Shown here one piece after another: positions 2,136-49,191 of a stretch of 64,000 nt of DNA. The notes beneath the pieces are model-generated. The model worked only from the letters and a program-made list of their open reading frames with translations. It made no database searches and was not told where the DNA came from. The stretch lies in the IMG/VR virus record IMGVR_UViG_3300042154_004306; one strand, given 5' to 3'. Numbering within the stretch: position 1 is the first letter of the stretch; each line of letters opens with the position of its first letter. The stretch is from a virus (lineage: Duplodnaviria > Heunggongvirae > Uroviricota > Caudoviricetes). The translations under genes and the position numbers were made by a program.

Positions 2136-2369
2136 ATGGAAACTCAAGGAATAATTGAAAAAATCGCGAGGGAAGCCGCTGAAGAAACGGTTCAGGCTCT
2201 GGCTTTAGCCCAACAAATGGGAATGGTCTCTTCTCAGGAAGAGCTAACTGTATTAATAGCTTCTGGAATAGAAACTGCTCTAGAAGAATACGTGATTCAA
2301 ATCGAAAACCAATCAAAGATAATTATAAATGAAACTGGAAGTATTCGAAAAGATAATAACTCTAATTAA
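2136..2369 (+). CDS. Hypothetical protein
   Basis: ORF preceded by TAGTATAAT (-10-like). Confidence 0.65.
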   Translation: METQGIIEKIAREAAEETVQALALAQQMGMVSSQEELTVLIASGIETALEEYVIQIENQSKIIINETGSIRKDNNSN

Positions 2370-2727
2370 GCAACATAGTGAACGCAGCTTTAAACTTGCG
2401 GAAATGGGAGTTGACCTAATCAACTACGAAGATGCATACTCTGGCGCAATAACTCTGTTGTTCAATGCATATTATGGAAGTGATGGAGAGGATTGGATAA
2501 GCTGGTACCTTTACGAAAGAGAAAGTTTTAGTGGTGAAATTTTGCAAGCTCGGGACAAGGACGGTAACGAGATTTGCTATGATATTCCAAGCCTATGGAA
2601 ATATGTTGAAGAGCTTAGATGCGCGGATGATTTCGTTGAGTACGAATTACCTGAGAAAAAACAGATCGATGAAAACTTCATAATTAATTTAATTGGCGGG
2701 TTTTTCAACGGAGAAGGTCAAAAGTAA
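2329..2727 (+). CDS. Hypothetical protein
   Basis: ORF; its TAA stop forms the left TAAC of the cassette-like element. Confidence 0.7.
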   Translation: MKLEVFEKIITLIKQHSERSFKLAEMGVDLINYEDAYSGAITLLFNAYYGSDGEDWISWYLYERESFSGEILQARDKDGNEICYDIPSLWKYVEELRCADDFVEYELPEKKQIDENFIINLIGGFFNGEGQK

Positions 2728-3013
2728 CGGTTTGCAGATACCCGAAGGAGGGGATTACGAATCACAAAATTTAATAAAATGGAAGAATATAAAAATTTAG
2801 AACAAAACTTGGATAAGAGTAATGAAAAATTACATATATCTGATGTTAGTGATAGTATTTCTTTTAAAACGAAGGATTACGAAACAGCTAGAGTAAAAGT
2901 TGGTGAAACTAATATAAGTATAAAAACAACAAAACGTAATGGAACTTTCAATACGATATACATCGAAGAAGGACAACAACTTTTTGACTACTTAAAGAAA
3001 TATTATCACTAAC
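2725..3013 (+). mobile_element. Integron attC-like gene cassette flanked by TAAC direct repeats
   Basis: TAAC 2725-2728 ... CAGATA 2735-2740 / TATCTG 2837-2842 ... GTTA 2845-2848 imperfect palindrome; GTTAGTGATAGTA (2845-2857) is the 12/13 reverse complement of TATTATCACTAAC (3001-3013). Confidence 0.6.
2779..3012 (+). CDS. Cassette-borne hypothetical protein
   Basis: 77-aa ORF starting inside the palindromic element and ending at the TAAC repeat. Confidence 0.65.
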   Translation: MEEYKNLEQNLDKSNEKLHISDVSDSISFKTKDYETARVKVGETNISIKTTKRNGTFNTIYIEEGQQLFDYLKKYYH

Positions 3014-3027
3014 TTATTAATATAAAC

Positions 3028-3477
3028 ATGAAATTTAAAAAACAATTTTCAGATAGTATTAAGAAATCTATCCATAGATTCAAAAGACTTTCTCAACAAA
3101 CTAGCATCAAGGCGTATAGGCTGTTAAATCCAACTAGTCCAGTTGAGACTATTTCAGGAGAAGCTGAAAGAGACGCAGCGTTCATTTTCAGAAAGATGAT
3201 TAAGCGCCAGGAAAGCGATCTATTAATAAGCCCAATCTCTCAGAACCAATACGTTAGAAACGATGAAAAGAAGATCTTACTAATTTTAGACAAGTATGAG
3301 CTGACTGTAATCAATAGCGTAGTTAGCTACAACATCCGAATCTCTCAAAGGACTAACAAAGCATTGAATGATGCATTTAATATTGAACTCGAAAAGCGTA
3401 GACTTGAAATGGAATTAAGTTTCAAAGAAAACGTTAAGCACTCTTTAAAAACGATATTAGTAAAAATAGATGAATAA
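3028..3477 (+). CDS. Hypothetical protein
   Basis: 149-aa ORF in operon-like run. Confidence 0.75.
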   Translation: MKFKKQFSDSIKKSIHRFKRLSQQTSIKAYRLLNPTSPVETISGEAERDAAFIFRKMIKRQESDLLISPISQNQYVRNDEKKILLILDKYELTVINSVVSYNIRISQRTNKALNDAFNIELEKRRLEMELSFKENVKHSLKTILVKIDE

Positions 3478-40523: not shown

Positions 40524-41143
40524 ATCACTTTATCTTCCTCAATTATGTCAGTATAGTTAGGTAAATTAAAAATACTACGGCTACCTCCATTAATATGAAT
40601 TACCTCCATTTCTGAATAGATATTTAATGAGTAATTTAATTTTTTAAGTTTACCAAAAATCCAGTCATCTCCAAACCATAATTTTAAGCCAGTTGGAATT
40701 GGATAAACTGCTTTACACATTTCTTTTGATAAAACGATCATAATTCCAGGAAAACCTCCAGGAATTTCATCAACGGTATTAGGCGGATTAACTGAAAATT
40801 CATTAACTGGATTTGGCAGCATAATGGTTTTTTCATAATCAATATCAGTTTCTCTAATTTTATTTAGAATTCCAGGCTTTAAAACCAAATCTGAATTTAA
40901 TATGATTAAGTAATCGTGGGCTGAGGTTAAAAACTTTTCCATTATTTGATTCCATGCCGGATTAACAAATACATTAGTAGAATTAGTTAAAACATTTTTA
41001 CCTGAAATTATTTCTTTAATACCGATTGTTGAATTATTATCAATAATAAAAACTTCATCAGCTTGTGGTTCTACTGCGTTAATACATCGGTAAACACAAT
41101 CTTCACAATAAATTACTGGAATTCCAACTAATATACTTCTCAT
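40496..41143 (-). CDS. GT2 glycosyltransferase
   Basis: IIDNNS, NVFVNPAWNQ, ILNSDL, WFGDDW. Confidence 0.8.
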   Translation of the reverse strand: MRSILVGIPVIYCEDCVYRCINAVEPQADEVFIIDNNSTIGIKEIISGKNVLTNSTNVFVNPAWNQIMEKFLTSAHDYLIILNSDLVLKPGILNKIRETDIDYEKTIMLPNPVNEFSVNPPNTVDEIPGGFPGIMIVLSKEMCKAVYPIPTGLKLWFGDDWIFGKLKKLNYSLNIYSEMEVIHINGGSRSIFNLPNYTDIIEEDKVIWETVKNLI

Positions 41144-41159
41144 AAGTTAAATTATTTTT

Positions 41160-41894
41160 TTATGATATTATTTCTTTATTAAAATTTGGATGGGCTTTCA
41201 AAACATCAGGCAGGGTATTTTTATCGAAAGCAACGGCTTCTCCCCATACTGTACACGTTGGATGTATATCTTTATCTCCAGGTTGCCAAGCGTAATAAGT
41301 ATTATCTAACCAGCCTGGTTTTATTTCGTTTTTATGCCCGTGAATTTCAAATTTGTAATCCATTATTTTTTTAGATTGAGCATATCCGAAATGATAGATT
41401 GTTCCATTAATAGATTCTTCAATTTGATTATTTTTATTTATGTTAAATAGTCTAGCTGGTTGAAACCCATCATAACATGCCCAATCAAAAGATTTCCAAA
41501 AGTTGACAAAACCGTTTACGTTTCGCCTCCAAGACGTACCTTCATACGTTTCCTTGATGCATTGTTCCAAAGAGGAAGGTTCCCAAACTTCATCAGCATC
41601 GACCGCTAGCATAACATCATACCCTGGAGCAAAGTTCCAAGCCAAACCTCGATGTTGACCTTCATTACCTAAGCCATCAGTGTTGATCCAATGGACTTTA
41701 GTTGAGGCAGCTTGTGCAATTTCACGAATTTCTGACTCGGTCTCTGGGCAAACCAATTGGGTTCCATAGCCATAACTGGGCTTGGGAGTGTATAGAATTA
41801 CAATTTTATCAACGTGATCGTTAATTGATTTTATTGAAGCATCCAAATATTCTGCTCCATAATGAATTGGATAGTAAGCTAAAGTCTTTATCAT
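41160..41894 (-). CDS. GT2-like glycosyltransferase
   Basis: YLDASIKSI, AVDADEVW, IYHFGYA. Confidence 0.75.
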   Translation of the reverse strand: MIKTLAYYPIHYGAEYLDASIKSINDHVDKIVILYTPKPSYGYGTQLVCPETESEIREIAQAASTKVHWINTDGLGNEGQHRGLAWNFAPGYDVMLAVDADEVWEPSSLEQCIKETYEGTSWRRNVNGFVNFWKSFDWACYDGFQPARLFNINKNNQIEESINGTIYHFGYAQSKKIMDYKFEIHGHKNEIKPGWLDNTYYAWQPGDKDIHPTCTVWGEAVAFDKNTLPDVLKAHPNFNKEIIS

Positions 41895-43211: not shown

Positions 43212-44097
43212 TTTTACCTAAGGCCTGTATTTTTGAAAAGAGAAAGTCGTCCGCTGATTCAAGGCTTTTTACTATTGCTAGATTCTCTTGTATGTAAGGT
43301 AATTTAGATTCATATAATTCTGAGGTTAACGAGTCGACTCCCTTAAATTCATCCCAAAAGATTATTCCTTCTGGATTAAAATCTTCACTAACTTTCCTAG
43401 TTCCCCAATAAATTGGAACCGTTCCAGTAGCAAAACAGTCTGTTATTTTTTCAGTGTAATACTTATCGTAAACCGCATTTTCAAAAACTACTGAAAATTT
43501 ATATTCTTTCAAGGCTGGCAATTTCGATCTCCACCAGTCGCCAGTTGGCCCAGAACCTTCACCTATTCTTTGAGAGCCGTGGGCTCCTCCAAAAAGATCT
43601 AGGTGATTCTGTAGTTGAGCTGCGACCTGTAACCTAATCATGTGGCCTTGGGTTCTAGCCTTTGGCGAACATATCATTGAACAGACCTTAGTCTTTTCGT
43701 AAAGCTTCATCTCTTCCGGCTTTGTCCACGGTAAATTGGAACCAGGTGGGCAGTAAACAAAAAATGGATCACCTAAAAGGGATTCATCGCATGTAAATAT
43801 TTTGTGAAAGCTCTTTTTGTATTTTGGCAAATCATTTAATATTTTTGAATGGATTGAATCACAAATTTGCCTAGATTCACATAGCCATCCGTATTTTCCA
43901 ACGGCAGATGGAGTAAGGAGCCCTTGTTCAATTGAATCGTCTATATAGACTACAGTATTTGAGTCTGAGGTTGTCCACTCAAACTTAGCGGTTGATAAAT
44001 TTGAACATGATGAGTATTCGGCTGGAAATGGAAGTCCGATTCCTTTAATGTGCATATAGTTTATCCCAATTTTTTTGTAAATTTGAATTGGCGTCAA
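43201..44097 (-). CDS. GT10 alpha-1,3-fucosyltransferase-like
   Basis: YKFSVVFENAVYDKYYTEKITDCFATGTVPIYWG is the GT10 signature. Confidence 0.9.
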   Translation of the reverse strand: MTPIQIYKKIGINYMHIKGIGLPFPAEYSSCSNLSTAKFEWTTSDSNTVVYIDDSIEQGLLTPSAVGKYGWLCESRQICDSIHSKILNDLPKYKKSFHKIFTCDESLLGDPFFVYCPPGSNLPWTKPEEMKLYEKTKVCSMICSPKARTQGHMIRLQVAAQLQNHLDLFGGAHGSQRIGEGSGPTGDWWRSKLPALKEYKFSVVFENAVYDKYYTEKITDCFATGTVPIYWGTRKVSEDFNPEGIIFWDEFKGVDSLTSELYESKLPYIQENLAIVKSLESADDFLFSKIQALGKNDD

Positions 44098-46150
44098 TGT
44101 TTATTAAAACCTCATTTTCAGATAAAGAGGCTTGGCCATAATAAATCGCGCCACCTGACTCAATTTTTAAACGAGTAATTTCGTCACTTGATTGAGTTAA
44201 CTGTTGGATTGGCAAGTATATCTTTAGTCGACTATGATTTGAAAAATTAAGTAAAGCAGAATAGGCTAACTTAATTGGATCAGGTTCAGACTCAGATATT
44301 TTGATCACAACAGTTTTGACAGATTTTGATAGATTCCATCTAGCCTGATGAGTTAGGCTCTGAACTGCTTGGTGGATTTTGTCCTTTCCTGGAATTTCAC
44401 TATTACCGTTATTTATGTATTTGCCATTTACAAAATCCAGCCAATTATCAGAAAGTAAGAATACACTATATTGTCCATTTAATTTCTCAAGAACATAGTG
44501 TTTCAGAGCATCATGATCTAGTTCAGGAATTCCTTTCTCAAACGCGGAATTGCAGTGTACGATCCACTCTCTTACGATTTTAAAAGCATCCTCTGTGTAA
44601 TTTAAAAAAACCGGAGATGCCTGTATTCCATTCATATCTCCGCTGTGAGTAGCTAATCCAATATCTTGAAAAAGATTATTGAATTCGCTGAACGGCTCCC
44701 TAAAATCAGTATCGCAATCCATCCATATAACGCCTCTTTTATGAGTCATCATTTTAGCCAAAATGAATTCAGGTTTCATGAGACAGTTTGCTGCATATCC
44801 GCCTCGAGGAGAGAGCTCAGAAATATCAAAACTAATCTTAAACTCGTCACATTTCTTAATGAGCTGCATTGCAAACGCTCGGTAATATCCACTCGATGTA
44901 AAATCAGAGTAATAACTAATCAGTAGTTGAGATAATGATTTTCGTTCTTCTGATTTTTTAATTTTTGATAAAAATTGAAAATTAGAAGTTTTGGTTTCTA
45001 CCGCAGGTGCTTCAGTTAGGTCGACTGAATTTGATTGAGGTTTTGTCGTTTTATTAAATGATGATATTGAATTAAGGTAGCTGTGTCGAATTTCCGTATC
45101 AAATCCTTTGGTCAAGGGCCCGGTCGAACTAGATAAATCGTAGACAATGTCCCAAGTCTTTCCAGAAGTTTCCAATTCATCTAACGATCGTATCATCTTA
45201 TCCGAGTCAATTGATGAAATTTGATTAGAAAATTCCACAAATAGAGGATCACTTGACTTCATGTTTCCAACTATCCAATATTCATGACAGCTACAGTTTT
45301 CAATTATTTCTAAAATGCGAGCCTTAGTAGATTGGATTTCGCCGTTTGGAAAATACTTAAATAGAATGGTTGGATTAAGTTCGGTTAAATCTGGTGAATC
45401 TGATTTTATATCTTGCCTGAATGCTGCAAATATAGTATCGGTCGCTTTTGTTTTTATCTTAGTTAGGGTGGATACTTTAGGAAGCCCAGTCTTTCGGACC
45501 GCAAACATCTGCTTGTGAATGTCTTGAGAGGTTGAAGTTTCTCTAAAATTTAAGGCAAGCAGCCGATCTACAAGTAATGGATCTGACTGATCCGGGTTAT
45601 CGAAGACTACAAACTTGTCATAGATTGAATCTGAACTGAACCGTACTCCATTTGTTAGAGTGTAAGTGAACTTTTTAATTCCAATATCGCTAACTAGATC
45701 TGGTCCAGTAATAGCAGCAGATATCAGTTTGGAAGTAGCCTCAGTATTAACGATTGTGAAAAGATGAGGGCATATTAAGCCGTTGTGCGTTCGATAAAAA
45801 ATATTTCGGTCAGAATATGCTGGAATTGATTTAAGTATGAATAGGTGAGGATCGAACACAGTAACGATCGCGTCCATGTAGGAAAGCGCACTAAATATGA
45901 AAGGGTCGATTTTGTACTGATTGGATTGTGAGTTTTCCTTTTTTATTTGTTGAGACATGTAGTTTGGAAAAACTCTAGTTACTTTACATTTTTTAGATAA
46001 AAAAATTACAAGCTTCAAAGGCACTTCAATTTGAGAACAAATCACAAGTTCATCGTAATCTGTCTGACTGTTCCTAAGGATAGACTCGACATTCTCTAGA
46101 AAAATATCCTGTACAGGATTTGAATAATATGTAAATAATACGGTTTTCAC
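44045..46150 (-). CDS. Multidomain nucleotide-diphospho-sugar transferase (GTG start)
   Basis: C-terminal CLMKPEFI...VIWMDCDTDF...ASPVFL...DHDAL (GT77-like); degenerate GT-A-like N-terminal region. Confidence 0.65.
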   Translation of the reverse strand: MKTVLFTYYSNPVQDIFLENVESILRNSQTDYDELVICSQIEVPLKLVIFLSKKCKVTRVFPNYMSQQIKKENSQSNQYKIDPFIFSALSYMDAIVTVFDPHLFILKSIPAYSDRNIFYRTHNGLICPHLFTIVNTEATSKLISAAITGPDLVSDIGIKKFTYTLTNGVRFSSDSIYDKFVVFDNPDQSDPLLVDRLLALNFRETSTSQDIHKQMFAVRKTGLPKVSTLTKIKTKATDTIFAAFRQDIKSDSPDLTELNPTILFKYFPNGEIQSTKARILEIIENCSCHEYWIVGNMKSSDPLFVEFSNQISSIDSDKMIRSLDELETSGKTWDIVYDLSSSTGPLTKGFDTEIRHSYLNSISSFNKTTKPQSNSVDLTEAPAVETKTSNFQFLSKIKKSEERKSLSQLLISYYSDFTSSGYYRAFAMQLIKKCDEFKISFDISELSPRGGYAANCLMKPEFILAKMMTHKRGVIWMDCDTDFREPFSEFNNLFQDIGLATHSGDMNGIQASPVFLNYTEDAFKIVREWIVHCNSAFEKGIPELDHDALKHYVLEKLNGQYSVFLLSDNWLDFVNGKYINNGNSEIPGKDKIHQAVQSLTHQARWNLSKSVKTVVIKISESEPDPIKLAYSALLNFSNHSRLKIYLPIQQLTQSSDEITRLKIESGGAIYYGQASLSENEVLINIDANSNLQKNWDKLYAH

Positions 46151-47199: not shown

Positions 47200-49191
47200 T
47201 TGAGTAGTACTAAAATCGCTAACCTAAACCAAACGGTCATTCCTGAAAATTCGGTGTTTATCATTGAAAGAATTAACGAGGCCGTTACTGTAACCAAAGA
47301 ATCTAACGGTGACGTTATTCTTGAAGGTACTGCTGCCGTTTTTGGAGTCGTAAACGAAAATAACCGTGTATACGAAAAGAATGAGTACTTACCTCACCTA
47401 CAGTATCTAAACAAGAAGATTGAAGAGCGCAGACTCTTTGGTGAACTTGATCATCCACAAAAATTTGATATTTCCTTAGCTAACGTATCTCACGTAATCG
47501 AAAGTCTTAGTTACGATGAAGGTTCCAACAGCGTAAAGATTAGACTACGACTTCTTGATACTCCATGCGGAAAGATCGCAAAGACTTTAGTTGAAGCTGG
47601 CTGTACAACATCAGTATCATCTAGAGCAGCAGGTAATGTTGATCAGAACGGTAAGGTTAAACTACATAAGATATTCACTTACGATCTAGTAGCTGAACCC
47701 GGTTTCTCACAAGCTTCGTTATCTCAGGTATCTGAAAGCCTACAAGGAAGTTTCTCAGCGATTTTTGAATCTTTAGATAATCTAAAGACTACGGCAATTA
47801 CCAACAAATTAATGGATATTTCTGAAAACTTCAATTTTGAAGATTCTGTGAGAATCTATAAAATAAATAATTCTGAAACAACCCCTAAACAAAATAATAC
47901 ACAGCAAATGGCTAATGAGTTTGTAACAAAAGACGAGATGAACCAATACTCTGAATTGGTTAAAAAGAAGTTTTCAACTTTACAAGAGAGCATCTCCAAA
48001 AACAATAAAGGTCTTCAAAAGATCTCTGAAAACGCTTCAACTGATGAATCACCAGTAGTTTCGAAAATGGTTGAGTACGTAAACTACTTAGCTGGCGAAA
48101 TGGAAAGCCTAGTTGAATACACTAACTATCTTTCAACTATGATGAATCAGGGTGTTAATTACACTGAGCATGTTGCAGAAAAAGTAAACAATGTAATTGA
48201 CTACTCTGACTACTTGGGAGACAAAGTTCAAAAGAACATTGCCTACTCTGATTACTTAGGTAAAAAAGTAAATGAAACAGCTAACTATGCTGAATACGTT
48301 GCAGAAAACGTTGAAAAAACAGTAGAGTACACAAACTACTTAGCTGAGAACGTTGACCTAAGCATTCAATATGCTGAGCACGTTGCAGAACACGCTGAAA
48401 ATGGAATCAAATTCTCTAACTACTTAGCTGAGAATCTTGATGCAACAATCCAATACTCTAACTACTTAGGAGAAAACTTAGATAAAGGTATCAAGTATTC
48501 TAGCTATATTGCTGAATCTTTAAATGAAAAAATGATTCCTGGAGCAACCGCTAAAACACGTTCTCTATTGGGAGAGGTTAAAAAATTAAATGAAAGTGCT
48601 AATTTTGAAATCTCTGAAACTTCATCAGTAGATGATCTAGTTAATGCAGTTGACGGTATCTTAACTCATATTAAATCCAATACAGCTCACGCAATTTTAG
48701 AAAGCAAATATCCTTTCTTGAAGCTGTTAAGCGAATCTAGAAAACAGGCTTTCTATAACTTAGATCAAACGTCTAAAACCGCAATCGTTGAGACAATGAG
48801 AGGTGCTATCTTCTTCACAGAAGACGAAGTAGTTAATATCATGGAAGCGGTTCTTAACAAGCAGGTTGAAAACACTCCTAACTACGTTAAATTCATGCCT
48901 GCTCAATACAAAGAAGTATACGAAAGCATGACAGACGGTGAAAAAAATTGGATTTCAGCACAAGCTAATAATATGGCGTTGAACACTCCATACCAAGTTA
49001 AAGCCTTCTGGGATTCACGTAATCTTAGAGGAATTAGTGAAAGAATTGCGACTCAAGCAAATATAAATAATCAAACAATTAACGAAAACCAAGGTAAAGA
49101 AGGTTATGTCTCGTTAAAACAAGTCAATGAAGGACTAAGAGGCTACTCTAATTCTTACATTGAAATGCTCCAAAGAAGAGCACAAAACTAA
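47200..49191 (+). CDS. g21: Prohead protease (gp21-like) fused to scaffold/core protein (gp22-like)
   Basis: NENNRVY, GELDHP, VSSRAAG, TYDLVAEPG followed by a long repeat coiled coil. Confidence 0.9.
   Translation: MSSTKIANLNQTVIPENSVFIIERINEAVTVTKESNGDVILEGTAAVFGVVNENNRVYEKNEYLPHLQYLNKKIEERRLFGELDHPQKFDISLANVSHVIESLSYDEGSNSVKIRLRLLDTPCGKIAKTLVEAGCTTSVSSRAAGNVDQNGKVKLHKIFTYDLVAEPGFSQASLSQVSESLQGSFSAIFESLDNLKTTAITNKLMDISENFNFEDSVRIYKINNSETTPKQNNTQQMANEFVTKDEMNQYSELVKKKFSTLQESISKNNKGLQKISENASTDESPVVSKMVEYVNYLAGEMESLVEYTNYLSTMMNQGVNYTEHVAEKVNNVIDYSDYLGDKVQKNIAYSDYLGKKVNETANYAEYVAENVEKTVEYTNYLAENVDLSIQYAEHVAEHAENGIKFSNYLAENLDATIQYSNYLGENLDKGIKYSSYIAESLNEKMIPGATAKTRSLLGEVKKLNESANFEISETSSVDDLVNAVDGILTHIKSNTAHAILESKYPFLKLLSESRKQAFYNLDQTSKTAIVETMRGAIFFTEDEVVNIMEAVLNKQVENTPNYVKFMPAQYKEVYESMTDGEKNWISAQANNMALNTPYQVKAFWDSRNLRGISERIATQANINNQTINENQGKEGYVSLKQVNEGLRGYSNSYIEMLQRRAQN
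48073..48534 (+). repeat. 11 x 14-aa coding repeat (xYxxYLAExxxxxx)
   Basis: EYVNYLAGEMESLV ... KYSSYIAESLNEKM, with a 42-nt period. Confidence 0.9.
49062..49069 (+). promoter_or_regulatory. Internal late promoter TATAAATA for the major capsid gene
   Basis: Exact consensus inside the scaffold gene, about 140 nt upstream of the capsid ATG. Confidence 0.55.

Follow-up and report, generated by a model that had tools for sequence, protein, structure and literature searches.

In a window of 64,000 nucleotides from a phage genome, we have identified a precisely inserted 285-bp unit that we interpret, with a probability of about 0.78 and on the basis of sequence comparison, as a mobile gene cassette that belongs to an integron-like platform of a T4-like phage. 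The unit resides between two phage genes and contains one small gene as cargo. The assignment of the phage follows from its Gp23-type capsid protein (140.7 bits). Its record comprises 180 kb, is about 67% complete and was reoriented to place the window on the plus strand. Coordinates of the cassette and its surroundings are collected in Table 1; those cited in a preceding sequence-only reading of this DNA were all correct, as were the bases (TAAC at 2725-2728 and 3010-3013, CAGATA at 2735-2740, TATCTG at 2837-2842 and the open reading frame 2779..3012).

Table 1. Features of the cassette and its surroundings, with positions in the window
Feature	Position	Strand	Remarks
Upstream resident gene	2329..2727	+	132 aa; homologs in 35 viral contigs
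Left junction TAAC	2725..2728	+	empty-site alignment, 8 contigs; outer (R-box) core of the hairpin site; the same TAAC opens every family element
attC-like element	2725..2848	+	family alignments
attC-like element, 5' part	2725-2740	+	TAAC core 2725-2728, 6-nt spacer 2729-2734, inner-stem 5' arm CAGATA 2735-2740
attC-like element, middle		+	variable region holding the 5'UTR and start codon
attC-like element, 3' part	2837-2848	+	inner-stem arm TATCTG 2837-2842, 2-nt spacer AT, GTTA core 2845-2848
Inserted cassette	2729..3013	+	missing from 8 close relatives and from more distant ones
Passenger ORF	2779..3012	+	77 aa
Left arm, cassette-specific extended R box	2845..2864	+	pairs with 2994-3013
Right arm, extended R box	2994..3013	+	ends in CTAAC; forms the right junction
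Pseudo-attI target TAAC-N6-ATATAAAC	3010..3027	+	uninterrupted in the empty-site relative L006
Downstream resident gene	3028..3477	+	149 aa; intact despite the insertion

The insertion is illustrated by relatives that were fetched from IMG/VR with the two flanking genes as queries. In eight related contigs, whose upstream gene is 83-97% identical to that of the window (with identities of the two flanking genes reaching 97% and 94%), only a short spacer separates the stop of the 132-aa gene from the ATG of the 149-aa gene. The empty site of the closest relative reads ...AAAAGTAAC|TTATTAATATAAAC-ATG, and all eight contigs contain this sequence or close variants of it. In the alignment, the window exceeds these sites by exactly 285 bases bounded by TAAC, a clean difference that matches the empty site predicted from the sequence. 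Since the 4-bp repeat is found at both ends, the boundaries of the cassette could equally be drawn as 2725-3009, and the crossover would be located somewhere within the four bases of TAAC. On the minus strand, these junctions correspond to G|TTA, in agreement with the crossover of integrons at G|TT of the R' box. The TAA stop codon of the upstream gene (2725-2727) falls inside the left junction. A Pfam scan of this 132-aa gene found no match. The upstream gene and the cassette ORF (2329-3012) share the same reading frame and are separated by only this TAA, whose read-through would fuse the two, an arrangement that is probably due to chance. Further upstream, a 198-aa protein (1514-2110) scores 77 bits against PF18143, the HAD domain found in 'Swiss Army Knife' RNA repair proteins.

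A defining property of the cassette concerns the complementarity of its own ends. An inverted repeat reaching the far end had been proposed with 12 of 13 matching positions, and it turned out to be longer, with a repeat finder defining two arms that are complementary at 19 of 20 positions and whose sole mismatch, at position 11, is a G.T wobble on the plus strand. The 20-mer has no second copy in the window, where 0.02 matches would be expected by chance, and its right arm at the same time encodes the C-terminal residues K-K-Y-Y-H and the stop codon of the passenger ORF. The same relationship is found in 14 of 17 distinct leader cassettes, where 15-23 bases starting from GTTA are the reverse complement of the bases ending in the 3' TAAC, with exactly one mismatch that always resides at position 11 and places a left-arm G opposite a right-arm T. 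The sequences of the arms vary between cassettes, and in 44 cassettes from five arrays, left and right arms of the same cassette match on average at 8.7 of 12 positions beyond the core, compared to 4.4 (sd 1.8) in mismatched pairs; 10 or more matches are found in 20 of the 44 own pairs but in only 5 of 1892 mismatched ones.

Upon closure of a circle, both arms would come to flank the 5' element and thus form one long hairpin. This is reflected in the predicted folding of the window cassette, which as circle junction reaches -19.0 kcal/mol (z -4.4) compared to -9.1 kcal/mol (z -0.46) in its integrated form, whereas an intact homolog reaches -23.3 kcal/mol (z -5.9) as circle junction. The original description of the first ~124 bp as imperfect palindrome holds with respect to its boxes, and its homology to elements with inner stems of 17-24 bp is clear, but the fold of the integrated 124 nt of this copy is no better than that of shuffled controls (z -1.08 and -0.29), and folding of both strands of 2715-2860 as DNA yielded no significant structure. 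The weak integrated fold is a consequence of an outer stem that is split by the integration and an inner stem that is chimeric and comprises 6 bp compared to 17-24 bp in intact homologs. Across 48 elements, a strand-neutral scoring of stem mismatches revealed 89 G.T on the plus strand and 13 A.C, which identifies the plus strand as the one selected to fold, although this bias could alternatively originate from folding of RNA, for which the plus strand is also the mRNA strand. Together, the complementarity of its own ends, the junctions at TAAC and its membership in a family support the assumption that the unit is an attC-like cassette that would once have been a circle.

The members of this family share a common form consisting of TAAC, a spacer of 4-6 nt, a stem, a loop, the returning stem, a spacer of 1-3 nt and GTTA, combined with complementary ends that are specific to each cassette. 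The same cassette, encoding a protein of 92% identity, is found between different genes in another phage (the 120-kb contig G002), and the stretch that is homologous to the window again extends from TAACGGT to CACTAAC. In ten further viral contigs, the 5' module is present together with 23-37 codons from the start of the ORF, but the C-terminal parts that follow are unrelated. With our own scanner, in place of attC covariance models, the attC-type structure was detected in 18 elements of the home array and in 48 across five arrays. A scan of 2400-3300 against Rfam, which contains no attC covariance model, returned only chance snoRNA-like matches far below threshold. A hammerhead-like CUGAUG in the conserved core was considered and rejected, as by eye the required A9 is missing and Rfam found nothing. 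A leader cassette is also located at about 3017-3196 of LR756500.1 (L001), a 462-kb uncultured phage, where the DNA of the module is 84% identical but the complementary 3' arm is absent; recombinase resemblance in this phage is confined to an 88-aa fragment of 43% identity, and these, together with a locus in L059, may be decayed remnants.

The copy in the window is itself a composite. The 5' arm, TAACGGTTTGCAGATACCCGAAGG..., agrees with an element of the home array of this phage, a counterpart of the subtype CCGAAGG-GGGG at 41181-41304 of the reoriented genome, about 25.5 kb upstream of the cassette (as compared with window positions 2725-2790), whereas from the 5'UTR onward the element is of the KLHISDV type, for which the 92% identical copy shows the proper partner arm. 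Since an exchange at TAAC alone cannot yield such a chimera, homologous recombination must also act on these elements, and the resulting chimerism may have reduced the mobility of the cassette.

The passenger ORF consists of a leader that is part of the mobile site and a separate cargo domain. Its start codon is located between the two boxes, and residues 1-22 constitute the leader MEEYKNLEQNLDKSNEKLHISD encoded within the hairpin element, so the cassette does supply its own translation start as had been proposed. The cargo domain extends over about residues 26-77. In a structure model, the leader (residues 1-23) shows a pLDDT below 50 and is predicted to be disordered, while the cargo is predicted to fold into four strands and a helix (pLDDT 80-86). 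A Foldseek search of the cargo against the PDB returned no match below an E-value of 0.1, and Pfam offered no family for the cargo or the neighbouring genes; the model only weakly resembles small repeats of four strands plus a helix, as in Pur-alpha, from which we do not claim a function. In a large protein collection, the same leader precedes at least 40 different small cargo proteins, and the same cargo is found with three other leaders or without any. At the protein level, a C-terminal YH accompanies the leader DVSDS and a C-terminal YN the leader DVSCS.

The conservation of the leader reflects a constraint on DNA, since its codons ATA TCT GAT GTT are invariant and complementary to the upstream box. 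Within the leader, ATATCTGATGTTA is unchanged in 29 copies from 14 records, and its codons are kept where the rest of the leader has diverged, which equally points to the DNA. A shared N-terminal motif had been anticipated and was found, with leaders ending in ...ISDV in four ORFs of the record; yet L-x-I-S-D-V results from translating the boxes of the DNA site that form inner stem and core, and it need not be a functional peptide. A role of the leader as capsid-targeting or leader peptide and of the upstream motif as promoter were both rejected, as was the interpretation of the unit as invertible segment, where inversion between the 20-bp arms would give a truncated product of 44 aa.

Further elements of this family are found elsewhere in this genome. 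When the 180-kb record was searched at the DNA level, the expected further copies of the left end were detected as partial copies outside the window. A home array of 18 elements, all on one strand, is located at 40.9-47.9 kb of the reoriented genome, about 19-26 kb upstream of the cassette. Between 40.6 and 47.9 kb, 16-23 kb before the start of the window, nearly every intergenic gap is filled with an element with stems of 11-24 bp and a loop of 9-140 nt; the equivalent search in simulated genomes returned between zero and three weak matches. Minimal elements of 48 nt with the identical loop TCGTTTTAATG are located at 40882, 41460 and 47244 and just before the attI-like site described below (47904-47932). 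The last unit before that site consists only of GTTATGGCA-loop-TGCCATAAC and has the appearance of an empty cassette. In two array cassettes (43760..44098 and 44947..45258), the hairpin-encoded leaders begin with MKDLKHIKRFNE and resemble T4 capsid-targeting-like tags.

Directly after the array resides a gene encoding a recombinase of 268 aa of the Xer/IntI type, the only tyrosine recombinase of the record, which contains Phage_integrase and Phage_int_SAM_4 domains. Array and recombinase are located about 15-23 kb before the start of the window and 18-26 kb upstream of the cassette. The window itself encodes no integrase, as had been noted, but the assumption that such an enzyme would act from elsewhere finds its candidate in this recombinase, which the phage encodes some 18 kb upstream of the cassette. 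The best NCBIfam models remain below their cut-offs, with a XerA-type model reaching 176 bits compared to a cut-off of 220, and lower scores for the integron integrase TIGR02249 (151 of 265 bits), XerD (139 of 330) and XerC (135 of 335). In an alignment with VchIntIA (2a3v), residues 20-179 of the query cover 17-180 of the chain and residues 211-264 cover 260-313, thus leaving 31 residues where IntI has 79, which implies that the IntI-specific insertion is absent. A search of the 180-kb record, at its completeness of ~67%, found neither a Y1 transposase (PF01797) nor a serine recombinase.

The linkage of array and recombinase is not confined to this phage. Homologs of the recombinase with 72-91% identity are found in three other phage records, in two of which an array of the same elements is located immediately upstream on the same strand, while the third contig ends after one upstream element. 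Bacterial homologs are 40-66% identical and mostly stem from Bacteroidota, and those of Flavobacterium and Desulfitobacterium adjoin arrays of the same kind of element on the strand opposite to the one used in phages. In one Desulfitobacterium (L110) and two Flavobacterium sequences (L137, L171), homologs of 43-47% identity are followed by 4-6 TAAC...GTTA elements, which in Flavobacterium are about 126 nt long. Several contigs that bear cassettes are devoid of the recombinase, including G002, which is rated complete.

The strongest single argument for an involvement of this recombinase comes from the site that the cassette occupies. At the array end, 40-60 nt before the start of the recombinase gene, four phages share the conserved sequence (T/C)AAC|TAT-N-ATATAT, which we regard as candidate attI. 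In the window phage, this site reads TAAC-TATCAT-ATATAAAC, and the target of the insertion reads TAAC-TTATTA-ATATAAAC. Counting both strands, the 180-kb record contains the motif TAAC-N6-ATATAAAC exactly two times, once in the attI-like site and once at this insertion, and zero times in 40 simulated genomes; the cassette thus occupies the only look-alike of the platform's docking site, which argues that it was placed there by the recombinase. The initial proposal of a system that targets TAAC stop codons is therefore better replaced by the description of the target as pseudo-attI, and the overlap of the insertion with a stop codon is incidental. This is further illustrated by a second hot spot in relatives of G002 (L070-L092), where a 233-aa gene ends in ...AACCGC-TAAC, with the insertion TAAC located 4 nt after the stop; the neighbouring gene resembles, by eye, a DNA cytosine methyltransferase. 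The sequences of the relatives diverge right after this TAAC, and at least six of them carry different hairpin cassettes, while one cassette-free relative continues with TATCTTATAT..., which resembles the attI-like site. An empty site with exact flanks for the 92% identical copy in G002 was not found among these relatives, all of which diverge exactly after the same TAAC.

In a mechanism that would account for these properties, the cassette circle would bring its two ends together and the joined ends would, in conjunction with the 5' element, fold into a long imperfect hairpin of the plus strand. Besides an outer stem of 20 bp with CTAAC/GTTAG at its end, this hairpin would contain an internal loop that is asymmetric, the inner stem and a variable loop. 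A tyrosine recombinase of the Xer/IntI type, presumably the one encoded beside the array, would then exchange strands within TAA|C between the folded single-stranded site and a double-stranded attI-like site. The partner in this case would not have been the true attI beside the recombinase gene but the genome's only look-alike, which happens to be intergenic and to overlap a stop codon. Since the hairpin element would bring its own 5'UTR, ATG and 22-residue leader, the cargo would be expressed in the direction of transcription of the phage.

Among alternative explanations, the least improbable would assign the hairpins a role in RNA, where they would serve the processing or stabilisation of transcripts or act as weak terminators in a series of small early genes. 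Cassettes would then be shuffled by general homologous or microhomology-mediated recombination between the repeats, as has been proposed for the PeSL regulatory cassettes of T4-type phages, and the neighbouring recombinase would be unrelated to the process. Such a role would be in line with the facts that the folding strand is the transcribed strand, that nearly every intergenic gap of the small-gene cluster contains an element that the element of the window combines two subtypes, for which homologous exchange inside it is required, and that the phage is T4-like. T4-like phages recombine avidly. However, the target shares only four bases with the left end of the cassette, and with the attI-like site only five plus an interrupted stretch of eight, and both junctions are found at the same core position of the site. 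Complementary ends that are specific to each cassette are expected from a circle that recombines at a fixed point and not from a function in RNA, nothing else in the genome resembles the site next to the recombinase gene as the target does, and the linkage between array and recombinase recurs in phages and bacteria. We thus consider this explanation unlikely.

A second alternative, in which an ancestor already carried the gene and the relatives have lost it by deletion between the TAAC repeats, would leave the polymorphism uninformative with respect to insertion, and it appears very improbable. Precise deletions can arise at direct repeats of 4 bp and the direction of the change is defined by parsimony only, but the latter favours a recent insertion in the lineage of the window since none of the sampled relatives contains the unit. 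This extends from contigs of 97% identity to more distant ones, whose upstream gene is down to ~42% identical and which also carry no cassette at this junction, and loss would thus require either many independent identical deletions or an odd phylogeny. Moreover, the two TAACs are the exact core boxes of a family of mobile elements and the same cassette is found in an unrelated context in another phage. A precise excision by a recombinase would leave the same empty site and, if it had occurred in the relatives, would imply the same mechanism, and it is thus compatible with a mobile integron-like cassette. The weakest alternative, a miniature element with 20-bp terminal inverted repeats (2845-3013) or an IS200/IS605-type element inserting 3' of a tetranucleotide, was rejected and is hardly credible, since despite the presence of such repeats and of a unit that follows one TAAC and ends in another, the empty-site alignment places the boundaries at 2725/2729 and 3009/3013 instead of 2845, the arms have no other copies, local subterminal hairpins are absent and the record (~67% complete) contains no Y1 transposase.

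The described integron-like cassette shares pronounced features with integrons and in particular with sedentary chromosomal ones. Both contain arrays of single-ORF cassettes that are split by imperfect palindromes with AAC/GTT cores (CTAAC...GTTAG), consisting of two paired boxes, an unpaired spacer and a variable loop, and in both, one strand is favoured for folding, which is the 'bottom' strand in a minus-strand reading of the phage system. Equally shared is the complementarity of the cassette start to the far box of its own site and the location of a conserved attI-like site, in the phage a candidate attI, at one array end, adjoining the 5' end of the recombinase gene. In a minus-strand view, the direction of the recombinase gene is away from the array and the attI-like sequence is located on its side of the G|TTA crossover, and cassettes begin with TTAG... 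and end with the hairpin site and a G as in classical integrons.

The differences are equally distinct. An insertion in the catalytic domain was reported to be essential for the function of integron integrases (PMC8138268), whereas the phage recombinase lacks this IntI-specific insertion and scores below the integron integrase cut-off, and we thus describe the system as integron-like and not as canonical integron. Its outer box is cassette-specific, extends over 15-23 bp and contains a fixed G.T at position 11, compared to 7 bp in integrons, and many of its sites carry a start codon and leader for the cargo. In integrons, promoterless cassettes are expressed from a common Pc promoter next to attI. 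The ORFs of the phage system are antisense to the classical direction and face the attI-like site and the recombinase gene, which precludes the use of such a promoter. Finally, the host is a phage of the lytic T4-like type. With respect to Xer resolvases (XerC, XerD and XerA), all models remain below their cut-offs and the context is a cassette array instead of a dif site, and IS200/IS605 elements and their miniature derivatives differ by the PF01797 protein, which has no match in the record (~67% complete), and by local end hairpins, which are absent from the unit.

The insertion outside of the array has a counterpart in the secondary or attG sites of integron integrases, which are widespread and share only the consensus GWT (Loot et al., bioRxiv 10.1101/2022.09.11.507474). 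In both cases a single cassette enters double-stranded genomic DNA outside of its platform at a short site containing G-W-T, which in the window is the GTT on the minus strand of TAAC that is abutted by the end of the cassette. In contrast to attG, the target described here copies 12 fixed positions of the platform's attI-like site, is unique in the genome and would be used by a different enzyme. Cassettes and attC-type sites were also described in phages, including virulent ones and a Polaribacter (Bacteroidota) phage, although these are mostly fragments of bacterial integrons or clusters of at least two attC sites devoid of an integrase, which were tested with the bacterial IntI1 (Qi et al. 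2023, PMC9892861), whereas the phage investigated here contains its own recombinase, an attI-like site and an array of 18 elements. Our literature searches, including the latter study, returned no description of a phage integron-like platform of this type. What our analysis adds is the insertion outside of the array and its pseudo-attI target. In T4-type phages, small genes of hyperplastic regions are flanked by repeated promoter/stem-loop modules, and these PeSL cassettes are thought to move as circles, with their shuffling attributed to homologous recombination between the repeats. A dedicated recombinase, AAC/GTT cores and complementary ends that are specific to each cassette are not part of the PeSL description.

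Collectively, our analysis suggests that large T4-like phages of the Bacteroidota type probably run their own integron-like gene capture with a short Xer-type recombinase that lacks a domain supposed to be indispensable for the recombination of folded attC sites, that their cassettes may also jump to pseudo-attI sites and that the recombination sites would double as expression modules, which provide a start codon and a common leader for unrelated cargos. Integrons have been regarded as bacterial devices that rely on a specialised integrase domain, and the present finding points to a platform of phages that has a simpler recombinase, hairpin sites that contain translation starts and cassettes that are common to many uncultured huge phages. 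The insertion in the window constitutes a natural experiment, for which both states of the site, filled and empty, are available along with the cassette, its presumed enzyme and what is presumably the authentic docking site, and these provide the exact substrates for a direct recombination assay. If true, this platform would give phages a new way to acquire small accessory genes and to exchange them.
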